This document shows positions 14,735 through 58,710 of a stretch of 64,000 bases of DNA, one piece after another. Positions within the stretch are counted from its first letter, which is position 1; each line of letters opens with the position of its first letter. The stretch spans positions 14,805-78,804 of the IMG/VR virus record IMGVR_UViG_3300017783_000006. One strand, given 5' to 3'. The notes under the pieces are model-generated. The model saw nothing but the letters and a program-made list of their open reading frames with translations, was not told the DNA's origin and ran no database searches. The stretch comes from a virus. The translations under genes were made by a program, and so were the position numbers.

Positions 14735-17700
14735 TCACCAATTTTTAGTGGTTTTTGGACCAACATAATATGCTTTAATAACAGGAAGAAGTGCAAGCCA
14801 TGGAGTATGTAAAGGAATTTTAGTTTGACCTGCTCCAGCACCACCATAAGTTCCAACTGTGTGATTATGATTTGCTACTGGTCCAGTTTGTACTGTATGA
14901 TTGTGTTTACCACTATCACCAACATCATGATTATGATTTCCAGTTGGAGCAACATCAACATTATGACTGTGAGAACCACCAGTATTTACACTCAATGGGT
15001 GAACATGTCCACCATCAGCAATAATATTATGCGAGTGATTTGCTATTGGTGTTAATGCTAATGGGTGTCTGTGTGAACCATCACCATCCACTTCAACCTG
15101 GTGAGCATGATAACCATTTTCATTTAAAGTGATTCTTAATGGGTGTCCATGTCTACCATTCAGTTCAGCAGATGCATTATGACCATGATATCCGTTTTGT
15201 TGAACTTGTATTTGGTGAGAATGTTTACCATTTTCTTGCACAGAAAGATTATGTCTGTGGCTACCATTCGATTCGACGGATACACTTGGTCTATTGTCTG
15301 AGGTATTGTAAGTTGGATCATTGTCATCTCCAGCAGCCTCATCACCATCACCACCTTTACCTCTCTCATATCTATATTGGTGACTATGGTCACCAACTCT
15401 TGTACCATGTCCATGATATCCTTCAGTATTAGTCTCTCCACCATGAGCATGTTTACCATTTTGAGTAGTGGATCCTTGGTGAGCATGTTTACCATTTTGT
15501 ACTACTCTTACATTATGAGTGTGACCAGCATCTGGACCTAACTCTTTAGTTGCAGTGCCATGATTATGTTTACCATTCTGCTTAGTTCCTGAACCAGGGT
15601 GTCTGTGATTTCCTATTGGACCCATATTATATTCATGAGTATGCCCACCTTGTGCTCCTGTTTCTCCATTATGGGAATGACTACCTTGAGTTCCTATATT
15701 ATGTTGGTGAGCATGTCCATCATGTTGTGAAACACTAGTTGGGTGTTCGTGAGTACCATTACTAGATAATGGGTGTTCGTGACCATTGTGGGTTGAGACA
15801 GCAGTTGGGTGGTTATGAGTACCATTTTGTGATAATGGGTGGGCATGTGATGGAACATCATTAGCATTAATTTTATGCTCATTCTTACCACCAGTTTGTC
15901 CAACATTATGTCCACCACCACTAATAGGACCATTTCCACTACCCATAACATCCTTTTCTCTTAGATCAGGAAGTTTTCCGTTTGCACCAAATGTATTTCC
16001 TAGAATTGAAAATAAATGCGAGTAATCAGCAGTTCTTCCTTGAACATTTCCTGTTCCATTTGGAACTATAGAACCATCGCATATTAAGTATCCTTCAGGA
16101 GCTTGTGCTGCAGCAAAATAATGAACAGATCCAATTGGTGGTTGCTGTTGCATCCACATCCACTTAACACCAAGAGTTTGACTGCTATTTGCAACTAATA
16201 CTTGGTCATTAGAACCAACATTAAGCATTTCTGCTCTATTTTGTTGCTTACCAACAGCAATTTGTCCCTTTGCAGTCCATCCTTCATCATCAAGGACCAT
16301 ACCTTGACCACCAAGAGCAATAATATGACAAGATTTGCCTGCTGATGGAGCAACAATAAATTGAATCTGTGGATTATAATTGAAATTGGGTGAAGTCCCA
16401 GAGAATGGAATGATATAATCAGCACCAGGTTCTAATAAAGTATCACCATCTAAGTATACGAGTAAGTTTGCTGGACCTTCTGGTTCAAATGCAGCACCAT
16501 CTGGAGCAAATAAGTTAAATGTTCTTTTAGATCCATTAAACTGATTTGCAATAGAATTCAATCTTACAGAGTTACCCTTAGGGTAACCATTCATTGTAAT
16601 AGGTGGTTGTGGAACGTATGTAAGAGTATTAATGAAGTCTTGCTGTTGGAGAATGGTATCAGTACCATTTGCTCTCAAGAAGTGGGATTGTCCATTAGTC
16701 GAACCACCACCCTGTTTGATGAATGACGCAGCAGTAATATTCCCTTTAAATGTTGAATTATTTTGAACACATAGTCCTTGACCAATTGAAACGTTTTTAG
16801 CAATACCAACACCACCATCAAATTGAACAGAACCAGTATTAACATTACATAATGTATTGTTAGTAGTTTTAGTGAAAGTAGTAGTACCGTCAATAGTGAC
16901 GTTATCCTCTAAGGTTAGTGTACCTTCAATTGTTACAGTACTATTAAATACTGCTGGTCCAATTTTTCCACAAACATAAAGGTTCTTAGCAATACCAACA
17001 CCACCCGCAACTCTTAAAGAACCAGTTGTGCAAGAGGTTGCTTGTGTAGTTCCTCTAATAGATACGAATGATGATGCACTATTATTACCCATGGTAATAG
17101 AGGAAGCAGTCTTAGCAAAATTAAGTGTGCTAATATTCGTATTAACTAAATTAAATGTTGTTGTGGTAGGTGTTGAAATTGTATTACCACCAACATCCAA
17201 AGTTCCTAGGATATTAGTATTACCACTTGTGTCAATCTTTAATTTTGTTTCACTTGCTCTATCAAAATCTTCATTTCCAGCAGCAGTTGTTGTTGCTGGA
17301 TTTGCAAGTTTCCAAGAATTTCCATCACTAGCATCGATACCCGAATACCAACGAACATTTGCATTATTTTTTGACCTATGCCAAGAGAGAACAGCATCAC
17401 CGTTTCCTTTCTGGTCTATTTTTAAGTGATTTCCCTCAAGTTCTTTACCAGAATTGCTTTGTTCAAAGTGGAAATGTCCAAGTGGTGTGATGTGGAAGTT
17501 TTGATTAGTGCCGACAGTAAATATCATGTCAGCACTTGGATCTGGTGCTTCAATTTTTAATGTACCACTAGATCCTCTCTTAGTGATTGTAGCATCACCA
17601 TTTGCCAGGTCATTGATGATGAATGTTCCATCAGGATATCCAGTATCATTAGTATGTAATGCTAGTTTTGCAGATCCAGAATTATTTCCGATACCTAGGT

Positions 17701-55470: not shown

Positions 55471-56106
55471 TTAGACCCACTCTAGTGCTTCTGCACAGAC
55501 AGGAAACTGTTCTGCAAAAATCTTTTGGCAAGACAATGCAATATCCATATGCTCTTTCTGAGTACCATTTGCAGACCTCAGAGTTATATAATGGATCCAT
55601 GATCGAACTGAGCCAGTCATGTAGAGTTTTGTAGGTACGGCGAGTGGAAGCACAAATCGAGCACACTCCTTTGCAATCCCTTCACTAAGCATTTTCTGAT
55701 ACAATTCCATTCCTTTTTGAAAGTGGTCTTGCATCAATATTTGATACTTCTGAATCGTAAATGGGTCAATATCATCAATACTATTTTGACGATTCTTGGT
55801 GTCTTGCCTGCGTAATTCAGGTAGAGGGATCTTCTCTGAGAGTAAGGAAGAATCAGCATAACGTTGTGAAAATTCTTGGTATGTAAAGGACCTATGCCTC
55901 AAAATTTGAGCTGCCAAACCCCTTGTGGTCTCGATTTCTAAAGTCATAAATGCTTGCTCAAATACAGACCAATGTTGGTGACTGATGCAATACTTTAGTA
56001 GTCCTGCTACCTTTGGATTCTCTTGATTATTGGGATTGCTCACACGGGCAACATATCCCATATGCTTTTCTGCATCAGGGGTAGCACTAATAAGTTTTAC
56101 ATTCAT
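55471..56106 (-). CDS. thyX: Flavin-dependent thymidylate synthase
   Basis: HWSVFE, QILRHRSF.YQEFSQRY, AKECARFVLP, RSWIHY..LR. Confidence 0.96.
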   Translation of the reverse strand: MNVKLISATPDAEKHMGYVARVSNPNNQENPKVAGLLKYCISHQHWSVFEQAFMTLEIETTRGLAAQILRHRSFTYQEFSQRYADSSLLSEKIPLPELRRQDTKNRQNSIDDIDPFTIQKYQILMQDHFQKGMELYQKMLSEGIAKECARFVLPLAVPTKLYMTGSVRSWIHYITLRSANGTQKEHMDIALSCQKIFAEQFPVCAEALEWV

Positions 56107-56267
56107 TTTCCAAATCCTTTTTTCTGTGTTTTCTCTAAGTCTGCAATTTCTTGCTTTAAAATTCTTAATTGAGATTTAACCTCTCTAATTTTTTCTTCGT
56201 CATAAAGATGCTCTTGTTTAACAAGACGTTCTAACATCTTTACTAATTCTTTTCCTCTACTTGTCAT
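56103..56267 (-). CDS. Small coiled-coil hypothetical protein (54 aa, ends KGFGK)
   Basis: Translated by hand; ATGA-coupled to thyX. Confidence 0.7.
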   Translation of the reverse strand: MTSRGKELVKMLERLVKQEHLYDEEKIREVKSQLRILKQEIADLEKTQKKGFGK

Positions 56268-56805
56268 TACCTTCAATATACAATTTATATGCTAATGTTA
56301 CTCTCAATCCATTAAAATCTTTAGAAGATGGTTGAGAGTGGTGAAAAATGGTACTATCAAAATATACACCACTATTTGGTCTGGGAAAAAATATTTTTTC
56401 ACTACCGTCATCACAGTCAAATAACGTTCCACCTCCCCATTCTTTTTTCCATTCAGGTTTGCAATAGATTAATAAAGTTCTTGAAGTATATTCAAATGAA
56501 TCTACATGAAGATACCCTTGCTGTCCAAACGTAGCACCATTTAAATAAATTCTAGCACACTTTATTATAGTTTCACCAGTAACATCATATATATTTTTTT
56601 TTATTTTTTCTAATAAATAATTTGCGAAAAAATCTTCTTCTGATAGTGAGCAATTCCAGAAAAAAGGTTTCCCTTTTTGAGTTTGTCCAGTAAGTCTCCA
56701 AGATAAATGATATTCATGTTCAGTACTAATTTTATTAACTGTATTAAGAATTTCAAAATAGTCTTCTTCTGGGAAGAAATCTTGTAAGTGTGTAATATTT
56801 CCCAT
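56257..56805 (-). CDS. 2OG-Fe(II) oxygenase
   Basis: RIYLNG, H.D, W..EWGGGT.F, FDS.I.H, R.TLAYK. Confidence 0.85.
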   Translation of the reverse strand: MGNITHLQDFFPEEDYFEILNTVNKISTEHEYHLSWRLTGQTQKGKPFFWNCSLSEEDFFANYLLEKIKKNIYDVTGETIIKCARIYLNGATFGQQGYLHVDSFEYTSRTLLIYCKPEWKKEWGGGTLFDCDDGSEKIFFPRPNSGVYFDSTIFHHSQPSSKDFNGLRVTLAYKLYIEGNDK

Positions 56806-57093: not shown

Positions 57094-57261
57094 TCACTTG
57101 TCGTAAGTCTGTCCACGATAGCAGAATGTGCCATGGGTTTCCTTACTTTCTACACAACGTGTATTATACTCAACACCACGATATGAAGTGTGAGAAATCT
57201 GTGCGTCGTGAACAGCAGATGCTTTTTGAATCTGCTTCTTGATCATGTTTAGTGTGTTCAT
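57094..57261 (-). CDS. DUF4278-like small protein (55 aa, two YRG..Y motifs; GifB/IF17-related)
   Basis: MNTLNMIKKQIQKASAVHDAQISHTSYRGVEYNTRCVESKETHGTFCYRGQTYDK; SD AGGAG at 57269-57273. Confidence 0.75.
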   Translation of the reverse strand: MNTLNMIKKQIQKASAVHDAQISHTSYRGVEYNTRCVESKETHGTFCYRGQTYDK

Positions 57262-57331
57262 GGTGTTACTCCTGAAGTTGGGTGAAAATTAACCTTCTCT
57301 CGTTTCCGAGGATCCGTGTTTTCCCGTTCCT

Positions 57332-57499
57332 TCAGTCGTTTGCGTCCCAATACCACTCACATTCTGGTGCTGAGTCCTTAAGGGTCTCAATCAACTCTAC
57401 CTTCACGATGGGAGATAGATTCGCATTCCTCTCAATCTTCAGCATTAATGCATCAGTTTGAGTGCATGAGAGTGTTGAATAGAATAATAGTTCTAACAT
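57332..57499 (-). CDS. Small 2-Cys protein (55 aa) embedded in aptamer B
   Basis: MLELLFYSTLSCTQTDALMLKIERNANLSPIVKVELIETLKDSAPECEWYWDAND; paralogous to 57536-57736. Confidence 0.65.
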   Translation of the reverse strand: MLELLFYSTLSCTQTDALMLKIERNANLSPIVKVELIETLKDSAPECEWYWDAND

Positions 57500-57535
57500 G
57501 GGATGAACGCTCCGTTCCTACGACTTACTTGCGTC

Positions 57536-57736
57536 CTATATTAATACATCTGTACATTGACCTTCCACTTTCGATTTAAGATAACCTATAAGATTATACT
57601 TAGAACGTTGGTCTAAGTTGGGATCCATTTGAATCTCAACTCTTCTTTGTAGAAACCTTTCACATGACATATGCCACCCATAAGGAGACTGGTCATTGTG
57701 ATGGGCAAGAGTCAGTGCCAACAGTATGCTAAACAT
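57536..57736 (-). CDS. Small 2-Cys protein (66 aa) with hydrophobic N-terminus, embedded in aptamer A
   Basis: ORF track; start and stop lie in the two P2 strands. Confidence 0.7.
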   Translation of the reverse strand: MFSILLALTLAHHNDQSPYGWHMSCERFLQRRVEIQMDPNLDQRSKYNLIGYLKSKVEGQCTDVLI

Positions 57737-57767
57737 AAGATGAACGACTGGTATAGTCTACCATAAT

Positions 57768-57774
57768 TATTTAG
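57768..57774 (-). promoter_or_regulatory. Late-type promoter (CTAAATA) followed by a 5' hairpin
   Basis: TAAATA 57768-57773; TGGTA/TACCA hairpin 57749-57763. Confidence 0.55.
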
Positions 57775-58128: not shown

Positions 58129-58146
58129 TAATACCTCAATTTGAAT

Positions 58147-58710
58147 TTAACTGCGACCACCCCAACGAATATCTGAATATGCTTCACTAACAAGTTCTCT
58201 AGTTAGTTTATACTTTTCTTGGAGTTTTTTGTCCTTACAAAGACAAATAATTTCTGCTTCAAGTGGGTGGAGTCCCTGAAGCAGATCAATAAAGATAGAC
58301 TCCCTTCTTAAAGACGAAAGTGCATCATTGCCACCCTTAATAAAATTATAAAACTTGGTGTACTCTGTTCTGATGGTTGTGTGCTTTGCATCAGTGGCAC
58401 CAATAGATCCCGATTCTCCCATCTTTTCAACAGCAGTATCAATCCTAGTTGAAATAGAATCGTTTTCATCCCCAAAGTAAGGAACTTCACCTGGAGGAAG
58501 CACTGAGATTACACTCTCATCAAAATTCCAAATGAATAATGCCTTCAGGGAGGGGTGGCTATACTCTTTCAAAAGTTCTACCTTCTTTGCTTTTGACCTT
58601 GCTTTAGAAACAAGGTTCAAAACTTCAAAAGATAATGGATTGGGGGGTAGTTTAGTAGGAGCTTTAGTTGTTGTCCTCTTCTTCCTCGTCGTTGTCATAA
58701 TTGTTTTCAA
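58147..58710 (-). CDS. Conserved T4-like hypothetical protein
   Basis: WNFD.S..S.LP.GEVPY, RRE..FI..LQGLHP.EA. Confidence 0.8.
   Translation of the reverse strand: MKTIMTTTRKKRTTTKAPTKLPPNPLSFEVLNLVSKARSKAKKVELLKEYSHPSLKALFIWNFDESVISVLPPGEVPYFGDENDSISTRIDTAVEKMGESGSIGATDAKHTTIRTEYTKFYNFIKGGNDALSSLRRESIFIDLLQGLHPLEAEIICLCKDKKLQEKYKLTRELVSEAYSDIRWGGRS

Follow-up and report, generated by a model that had tools for sequence, protein, structure and literature searches.

The closest described relatives of the element treated here are the glutamine riboswitches of cyanobacteria. In the hosts they function as ON switches, as was shown for the leaders of gifB and of Prochlorococcus DUF4278 genes (Klahn 2018, PMC6212724). 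Their Rfam models are RF01739 (Glutamine-I, glnA RNA; gathering score 35 bits) and RF01704 (Glutamine-II, Downstream-peptide RNA; gathering score 33 bits). In a count of 157 glutamine doublets (Sherlock et al. 2022, PMC9481103) the two units were described as lying side by side, each with its own expression platform, and a survey recorded two glutamine aptamers in cyanophages (McCown 2017, PMC5473149). In crystal 6QN3, two glutamine-II RNAs exchange their P1 strands such that CGUUC of one pairs with GGAACG of the other, an arrangement thought to be non-physiological (PMC7357161). The subject of this study is the leader of a three-gene cassette on a 64,000-nucleotide (nt) stretch of a marine cyanomyovirus genome (the window; IMG/VR record IMGVR_UViG_3300017783_000006, positions 14,805 to 78,804), in which two cores of this kind would be nested within each other and enclose whole genes.

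With the Glutamine-I class, represented by the Synechocystis gifB/IF17 leader (PMC6212724), the phage leader shares the P1 helix CGUUC/GAACG, the A bulge, the P2 helix UCC...GGA, the junction J2/3 with the sequence CG(C/G)AAGUA, P3, the GAA half of the E-loop and the position 5' of a DUF4278 gene. It also shares a competing pairing by which the ribosome-binding site is masked, as in the gifB leader, and would likewise be an ON switch. P3, however, is normally a hairpin, whereas in the phage it would be a helix of 5-6 base pairs (bp) across approximately 190 nt, the 'loop' of which is the second, permuted core; in addition, the phage P2 helices each hold a gene and the Rfam model does not detect the window. 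With Glutamine-II the leader has in common the core CGUUCA...CGCA...GGAACG, which in marine picocyanobacteria precedes short YRG peptides, but Glutamine-II forms a local pseudoknot, in place of which the phage element would have an E-loop and a nested P3. The P1 exchange of the 6QN3 domain-swapped dimer is the same as that of the phage twin, which would make it within one RNA, and covariation suggests that in the phage element the swap is the native fold. Tandem riboswitches, such as those for glycine and the glutamine doublets, also place two homologous cores before one gene and may respond cooperatively. They lie side by side, whereas the phage cores would be nested, with one shared helix and one platform and with coding genes inside. 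Attenuator leader open reading frames (ORFs) and the rare riboswitches that overlap coding regions share with the phage leader the contest between ribosome movement and folding on the same nucleotides; in attenuators, however, a short peptide is encoded beside the sensor, whereas here whole conserved genes of 50-70 codons lie inside the aptamer stems.

Riboswitch aptamers are usually regarded as compact untranslated modules, and their use by phages has been stated to be rare. The leader departs from this picture in that it would be nested and domain-swapped, tolerates and apparently exploits whole genes in its stems, was overlooked by standard covariance-model annotation and precedes a relative of host glutamine-synthetase inhibitors. 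Approximately 400 cyanophage records and, from metagenomes, more than 150 distinct variants share the sensor. It provides a natural counterpart to a P1 swap otherwise known only from the crystal, a testable case of ligand sensing in direct competition with translation, and a hint of the way in which viruses abundant in the ocean read or reset the nitrogen status of their hosts. The riboswitch class was already known. Newly described are the occupancy of both P2 helices, the homology of the two embedded genes, the covariation of the anti-Shine-Dalgarno pairing and the parallel with the crystal dimer. The literature searched, which did not extend to Ames & Breaker 2011, yielded no account of nested cores or of an aptamer that contains genes.

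Fold of the sensor

The cassette, positions 57800-57045 on the minus strand (the strand of all features given below), is a self-contained cyanomyovirus transcription unit, a three-gene mini-operon. Between 57746 and 57323 the half-motifs CGUUCAUC..AUG and GACGCAA..GGAACGG alternate, each being present twice. In the 64-kb window GACGCAA-N9-10-GGAACGG occurs exactly twice and CGTTCATCYNATG exactly twice, in each case only here and on the minus strand, against 0.00 and 0.01 occurrences in shuffled sequences; chance is therefore excluded. An earlier reading of the letters alone (the original prediction) had named the motifs of the locus, and all of them were recovered base for base at the coordinates given here, including the Shine-Dalgarno sequence, the CTCG-GAAA-CGAG hairpin, the YRG..Y peptide and the terminator.

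The leader is probably one composite Glutamine-I-type sensor made of two cores that share a single P3, with genes inside P2 and an expression platform for the downstream gene, ORF C. The outer core would be closed by P1, formed from the first CGUUC (CGTTC, 57746-57742) and the last GGAACG (57330-57325, followed by GG), the paired positions of the latter being 57329-57325. P2A would follow with the 5' strand TCTTATGTT (RNA UCUUAUGUU; 57740-57732) and the 3' strand AATATAGGA (RNA AAUAUAGGA; 57542-57534), between which ORF A is enclosed. J2/3 reads CGCA-AGTA (CGCAAGUA, 57533-57526), where AGUA is the 5' half of the E-loop, and leads into the 5' strand of P3, AGUCGU (AGTCGT, 57525-57520). Its partner lies in the 3' half of the sensor (57344-57325), which consists of CGCA (57344-57341), A, the P3 strand ACGACU (ACGACT, 57339-57334), the second E-loop half GAA (57333-57331) and GGAACG. 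At the far end of P3 the inner core would be attached as a circular permutation. Its P1 would be capped as the junction hairpin GGAACG-GAG-CGUUC (57518-57505), composed of GGAACG (57518-57513), the linker GAG (57512-57510) and CGTTC (57509-57505), and its P2 would be P2B, in which UCCCA (TCCCA, 57503-57499) and UGGGA (TGGGA, 57349-57345) enclose ORF B. The 9-bp P2A and the 5-bp P2B thus close loops of approximately 190 and 150 nt, as compared with approximately 4 nt in the RF01739 model.

Pairs of the nested model were counted in an alignment of 142 distinct units that contain ORF B. P3 is paired in 100% of these sequences although its strands lie approximately 190 nt apart, and three of its five pairs have changed on both sides, as in the variants AGUCA/UGACU, AAUCG/CGAUU and AGACU/AGUCU; the other changes are wobbles. 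Across ORF B, 97.6% of the P2B cells are paired, with compensatory changes in four of the five pairs. The observed pairing of P3 and P2B was not attained in any of 500 shuffles, and when the partner columns were slid the pairing fell to 27-47%. In all 23 distinct relatives in which P2A closes an ORF, at least five consecutive P2A pairs are kept, with pair 3 varying between UA, CG and UG and pair 4 between UA, CG and AU. The proposal that AGUCGU and ACGACU form a long-range helix is borne out by these counts. Of the helices for which the original prediction had proposed a covariation test, P2 and P3 covary and the outer P1, the strands of which are invariant, does not; covariation in the junction hairpin consists of a single C-G to G-C exchange. 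Also invariant in the 142 relatives is CGCA-AGUA of J2/3, which fits the RF01739 consensus CGGAAGUA. When both ORFs of the window were replaced by GAAA loops, the nested fold was the minimum-energy structure in RNAfold (-27.8 kcal/mol).

Two registers of the P1 strands had been left side by side in the original prediction: an outer aptamer that holds a circularly permuted inner one, and two kissing aptamers. According to the latter, two tandem, 'pseudo-cooperative' aptamers would each form their own P1 and touch through an AGUCG/CGACU kissing helix. Both P1 pairs are identical in most phages, and 99.7% of the cells are paired in the side-by-side register; aptamer A, the first to be transcribed, could fold by itself; and Infernal scores single units, such as the compact aptamer A without ORF A of phage S-MbCM7 (L007:584-627; RF01739, 30.4 bits, E 0.0017, below the gathering score of 35) and aptamer B of contig L114 (34.1 bits). 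In the literature, glutamine doublets are regarded as tandem units (PMC9481103). The side-by-side register is broken, however, in two distinct sequences from four contigs (L034, L067, L068 and L069), where the first GGAACG has become GCAACG and the second CGUUC has become CGUUG, without any change in the first CGUUC or the last GGAACG. In these contigs the hairpin GCAACG:CGUUG and the outer P1 are perfect, whereas the side-by-side P1 helices receive a C.C or a G.G mismatch. The P2A sequences of the four contigs differ from one another, which shows that the junction swap was maintained through later divergence; as a register signal it appears small but clean. Neither unit alone contains a complete E-loop and P3, and scores above the Rfam threshold are obtained only in the nested register. 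On geometric grounds, as a single nucleotide joins the far end of the 5' strand of P3 to the next GGAACG, this strand should be unable to reach back over a helix of 5-6 bp to the junction from which it came, and another junction at that end of P3 fits. The kissing arrangement is therefore considered rather improbable, and the nested register, which the junction swap and the register chosen by Infernal favor, is followed here.

Within the nested fold the inner core has no E-loop, as single nucleotides (C and A) stand in place of AGUA/GAA of the outer core. The outer aptamer, which by itself satisfies the RF01739 consensus, might then be the only one to sense glutamine, and the inner core might be a relic of duplication or a scaffold that holds P3 and packages ORF B. 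This is rather unlikely because the inner-core nucleotides CGUUCA...GGGACGCA are nearly invariant in the 142 sequences, even at the synonymous positions of the last codons of ORF B, and because Glutamine-II aptamers bind without an E-loop, according to a passage of PMC7357161 that cites Huang 2019.

Gene-free relatives and Rfam searches

In seven relatives (L099, L114, L116, L122, L130, L131 and L140) each P2 element is a short hairpin, and a gene-free twin of approximately 90 nt is located immediately 5' of ORF C. Three of these twins exceed the gathering score of RF01739 in Infernal searches, with 43.6 (L099), 40.2 (L140) and 38.4 bits (L122). The register assigned by Infernal is the nested one: the last GGAACG is the partner of the first CGUUC, the E-loop is made up of AGUA and GAA, and P3 is AGU...ACU (AGUCG/CGACU) with a 'loop' of 38-43 nt. 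The search without the P2 inserts that the original prediction had suggested was thus run on natural gene-free variants, and its above-threshold RF01739 matches uphold both the assignment to the glutamine riboswitches and the expectation that covariance models miss the window owing to the inserts in P2 (38-44 bits in the gene-free relatives vs. the threshold of 35). With RF01704, sub-parts of some gene-free relatives score 34-35.7 bits. Compared with the traits of that class, the window element has the AGUA/GAA E-loop, and the partner strand lies approximately 190 nt downstream rather than in a local pseudoknot flanking GGAACG. RF01704 matches in this genome are confined to regions outside the locus and do not exceed 9.7 bits; the one at window positions 58135-58170 (minus strand; 9.7 bits, E 0.38), in an intergenic gap upstream of an ORF of 88 amino acids, is probably noise. 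The contig of one gene-free twin also carries a PhotoRC-II RNA (L099:1021-1116; RF01717, 57.1 bits).

Among 121 genomes of the family of a Cyanobium metagenome-assembled genome, 42 have RF01739 matches. The twelve hits inspected (L330-L334, L338, L341, L342, L344, L346, L351 and L356) are all single aptamers and none is a twin, a sample that does not show the twin to be absent from the family. Their P1 is CGUUG/GCAACG, likewise that of L328 and L329, in contrast to CGUUC/GGAACG of the phage twins, with the exception of the inner hairpin of L034, L067, L068 and L069, which is of the host type. A search of genome contigs with the junction pattern returned, among the matches listed, chance occurrences in unrelated bacteria, none with the flanking motifs, and is uninformative with regard to hosts.

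Genes inside the P2 loops

ORF A (66 amino acids, phrog_6471) occupies 57736-57536, with its ATG in the 5' strand and its TAG in the 3' strand of P2A. ORF B (55 amino acids, phrog_504) extends over 57499-57332 from an ATG in the 5' strand of P2B to a TGA that covers the last base of P3 and part of the E-loop; a possible Shine-Dalgarno sequence, GGAG (57513-57510), is situated in the loop of the junction hairpin. The placement is conserved. The ATG of ORF B lies in the P2B 5' strand in 141 of 142 units, 135 times at the same offset, and in 136 of 141 reading frames, which are 49-66 codons long, the stop codon is the UGA or UAA inside ACGAC-UGA-AGG. The codons for the conserved WDAND end of the protein make up part of the 3' motif of the sensor.

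That genes occupy both P2 loops, as the original prediction had proposed, is supported by the ratio of nonsynonymous to synonymous changes (pN/pS), which in frame is 0.24 for ORF A (out of frame 1.24 and 1.33) and 0.33 for ORF B (out of frame 0.73 and 1.97). The in-frame value for ORF C is 0.30. Judged by these ratios, ORF A, ORF B and ORF C are real genes under purifying selection. Profile comparison of the ORF A and ORF B families by hhalign (probability 95%, E 3.9e-8) aligned 40 columns, including two conserved cysteines, and by this measure the two are homologous, that is, paralogues. AlphaFold predicts for ORF B a three-helix bundle behind a hydrophobic N-terminus (predicted local distance difference test score 81). 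Foldseek found no match of this model in the PDB at E≤0.001, Pfam returned nothing for ORF A or ORF B, and in a protein atlas ORF B matched unnamed clusters only.

ORF C and its ribosome-binding site

ORF C (57261-57094; 55 amino acids, phrog_545) is a DUF4278-like protein with two YRG motifs. DUF4278 is a domain that also occurs in the glutamine-synthetase-inactivating factor IF17. With PF14105 (DUF4278) ORF C scores 23.9 bits (E 5.6e-5), somewhat below the cut-off of 25.3, and 43 of 46 relatives match the model at E≤0.01, the best at 1.6e-6, in keeping with the DUF4278-like gene named in the original prediction. In the family, Y27, R28 and G29 are invariant and Y48, R49 and G50 are at least 90% conserved. 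In L065, L122 and L140 the regulated gene has been swapped, and a more canonical DUF4278 peptide (MTTITYRGVQYD..., MAQVTYRG...) replaces the MNTLN... family; in L065 the different YRG gene follows the 3' half of the sensor at 1070.

The Shine-Dalgarno sequence of ORF C, AGGAG (57273-57269), can be drawn into an alternative hairpin (57335-57269) that was absent from the original prediction. In this hairpin CU[G/A]AAG, made up of the end of P3, the E-loop half and the next G, pairs with CUU[C/U]AG, the last two bases of which begin AGGAG; in the window these are CUGAAG (57335-57330) and CUUCAG (57277-57272). The GG that follows GGAACG is paired further inside, where the CTCG-GAAA-CGAG hairpin (57310-57299) is also located. 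Among the relatives the variable pair of this anti-Shine-Dalgarno helix is G-C in 48, A-U in 46, G.U in 26 and A.C in none. RNAfold predicts the hairpin in 118 of 118 distinct leaders, with -21.5 kcal/mol in the window. From its sequence it fits an expression platform of a glutamine-ON translational switch: since hairpin and aptamer are mutually exclusive, stabilization of the aptamer should free the ribosome-binding site of ORF C.

The following sequence of events is proposed. Glutamine would stabilize the nested fold and thereby withdraw the anti-Shine-Dalgarno strand, so that ORF C is translated, on the pattern of the gifB switch of the hosts. The starts of ORF A and ORF B would be buried in this fold, because the segment from GGAG of the junction loop to the AUG of ORF B is fully paired and the AUG of ORF A lies in P2A; both genes would be off. 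Ribosomes on ORF A or ORF B would in turn unzip P2, P3 and the outer P1 and oppose sensing. Nitrogen sensing and translation probably compete in this way on one RNA. A more far-reaching version, put forward tentatively as a possibility that falls short of being probable, is a three-gene toggle in which the two cores, domain-swapped through their P1 strands and joined by the shared P3, would respond cooperatively to glutamine. With glutamine bound, they would bury the starts of the paralogues ORF A and ORF B and expose the site of the inhibitor-like ORF C, and at low glutamine ribosomes on the embedded genes would unzip the sensor; in this version translation would extend through the aptamer itself and control would be reciprocal.

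In 136 of 141 relatives the stop codon of ORF B falls within CU-GA-AG, which forms the 5' side of the sequestering hairpin. This suggests another mode of control, according to which ORF B would be mainly a leader ORF whose termination in the anti-Shine-Dalgarno strand couples ORF C to it, the aptamer motifs being of little importance. Yet the gene-free twins keep hairpin and aptamer without ORF B, the aptamer helices covary, and the ORF B protein is under purifying selection with a predicted three-helix domain. As the principal mode of control, coupling by ORF B is improbable.

Several points weigh against a nested glutamine sensor with an ORF C platform. In the window the locus has no RF01739 or RF01704 match, either at the gathering level or at E≤10, and a search of the whole 78.8-kb virus record with both models likewise gave nothing there, which is ascribed to the two inserted genes. 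The covariation counts come from related sequences, so that the events are not independent. As the two P1 pairs are mostly identical, the choice of the nested over the side-by-side register depends on one lineage-level swap, the Infernal register and geometry; and the value of -21.1 kcal/mol that RNAfold gives for the side-by-side fold makes for an unfair comparison, since the kissing P3 cannot be scored. The inner core, lacking an E-loop, may be unable to bind glutamine. The anti-Shine-Dalgarno helix reaches only the first two bases of AGGAG, and termination at the end of ORF B would also open the sequestering hairpin, so that ORF C might be coupled to ORF B regardless of glutamine.

Distribution and occupancy of the P2 loops

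Conservation of the locus extends to 401 cyanophage records in GenBank, relatives of ORF B are encoded by 213 IMG/VR stretches, and the junction motif is present on more than 120 IMG/VR stretches. From the GenBank and IMG/VR relatives 154 distinct units were parsed, in which all four combinations of P2 occupancy are found. P2A is compact and P2B contains ORF B in 93 units; P2A has an insert of 100-299 nt and P2B has ORF B in 21, 19 of which carry in P2A an ORF A homologue of 66-75 codons; P2A with ORF A and a compact P2B occur together in 2; and both are compact in 8. The window, with both loops occupied, belongs to a minority type. In 27 of the remaining units the first CGUUC was not located, and 3 have larger apparent inserts, 2 of which (L196 and L022) are false calls. 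One contig contains three units in succession (L161:6503-6900), namely a compact aptamer, an aptamer with an ORF A-like gene in P2 and another compact aptamer, the last of which precedes a different DUF4278 gene of the MAQVTYRG type.

Aptamer loops and flanks seem to be hot-spots of insertion. The P2A loop of L028 (454-866) contains, on the other strand, an ORF of 126 amino acids that by eye resembles an HNH homing endonuclease. In L067 (1100-1700) an ORF that is HNH-like by eye follows a further compact CGTTCATCCC motif and replaces ORF C, and in GenBank PV340852 (Sf-CH5) an annotated homing endonuclease splits the match to the locus. This clustering of homing endonuclease genes and other inserts, together with the WDAND codons that form part of the 3' motif, would also be expected if the motifs were features of the DNA or the protein, such as recombination sites at the cassette boundary or codon constraints, without an RNA structure. 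Compensatory changes in three helices, with strands up to approximately 200 nt apart, the above-threshold Rfam matches of relatives and the persistence of the motifs where the ORF is absent make this explanation extremely unlikely.

Promoter, transcription and neighboring genes

A promoter scan identified, at 57783-57755, the σ70-like promoter TTGGCA-17 nt-TAGACT, in which TG precedes the -10 hexamer. The distance from the end of this hexamer to the first CGTTC is 8 nt, and a TTGNNN-16/18-TANNNT element ending 5-11 nt before the first CGUUC is present in 109 of 122 distinct relatives. From this placement, transcription is expected to start near the 5' end of the aptamer. Three nucleotides upstream of the -35 hexamer lies the palindrome GTG-N8-TAC (57800-57787), by sequence a candidate site resembling an NtcA box; in the upstream regions of 56 of the 122 relatives GTA-N8-TAC is found, mostly ending 2-8 nt before the -35 hexamer. 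The spacer of the promoter is overlapped by CTAAATA (57774-57768), a motif resembling late promoters of T4. Motifs of this late-like type occur in 56 of the 122 relatives, where they usually overlap the -35 hexamer and the spacer. The late transcript assumed in the original prediction is not sustained by the conserved promoter, which is σ70-like; with the late-like motif overlapping it, late transcription may nonetheless occur.

Metatranscriptome contigs from four studies cover 57114-57537 with 85-99% identity; they represent sequences of relatives, could derive from DNA and do not show transcript ends. Some of them run from ORF B through the 3' sensor half into ORF C, and the missing coverage over ORF A carries no meaning. 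In a terminator scan, the cassette was found to be closed by an intrinsic terminator at 57071-57045, an 11-bp stem followed by a T run, and another intrinsic terminator is located on its other side at 57852-57833. Downstream of the cassette (window 55471-56805, minus strand) follow ORFs of 211 and 182 amino acids, the translations of which resemble ThyX and a 2OG-Fe(II) oxygenase, respectively.

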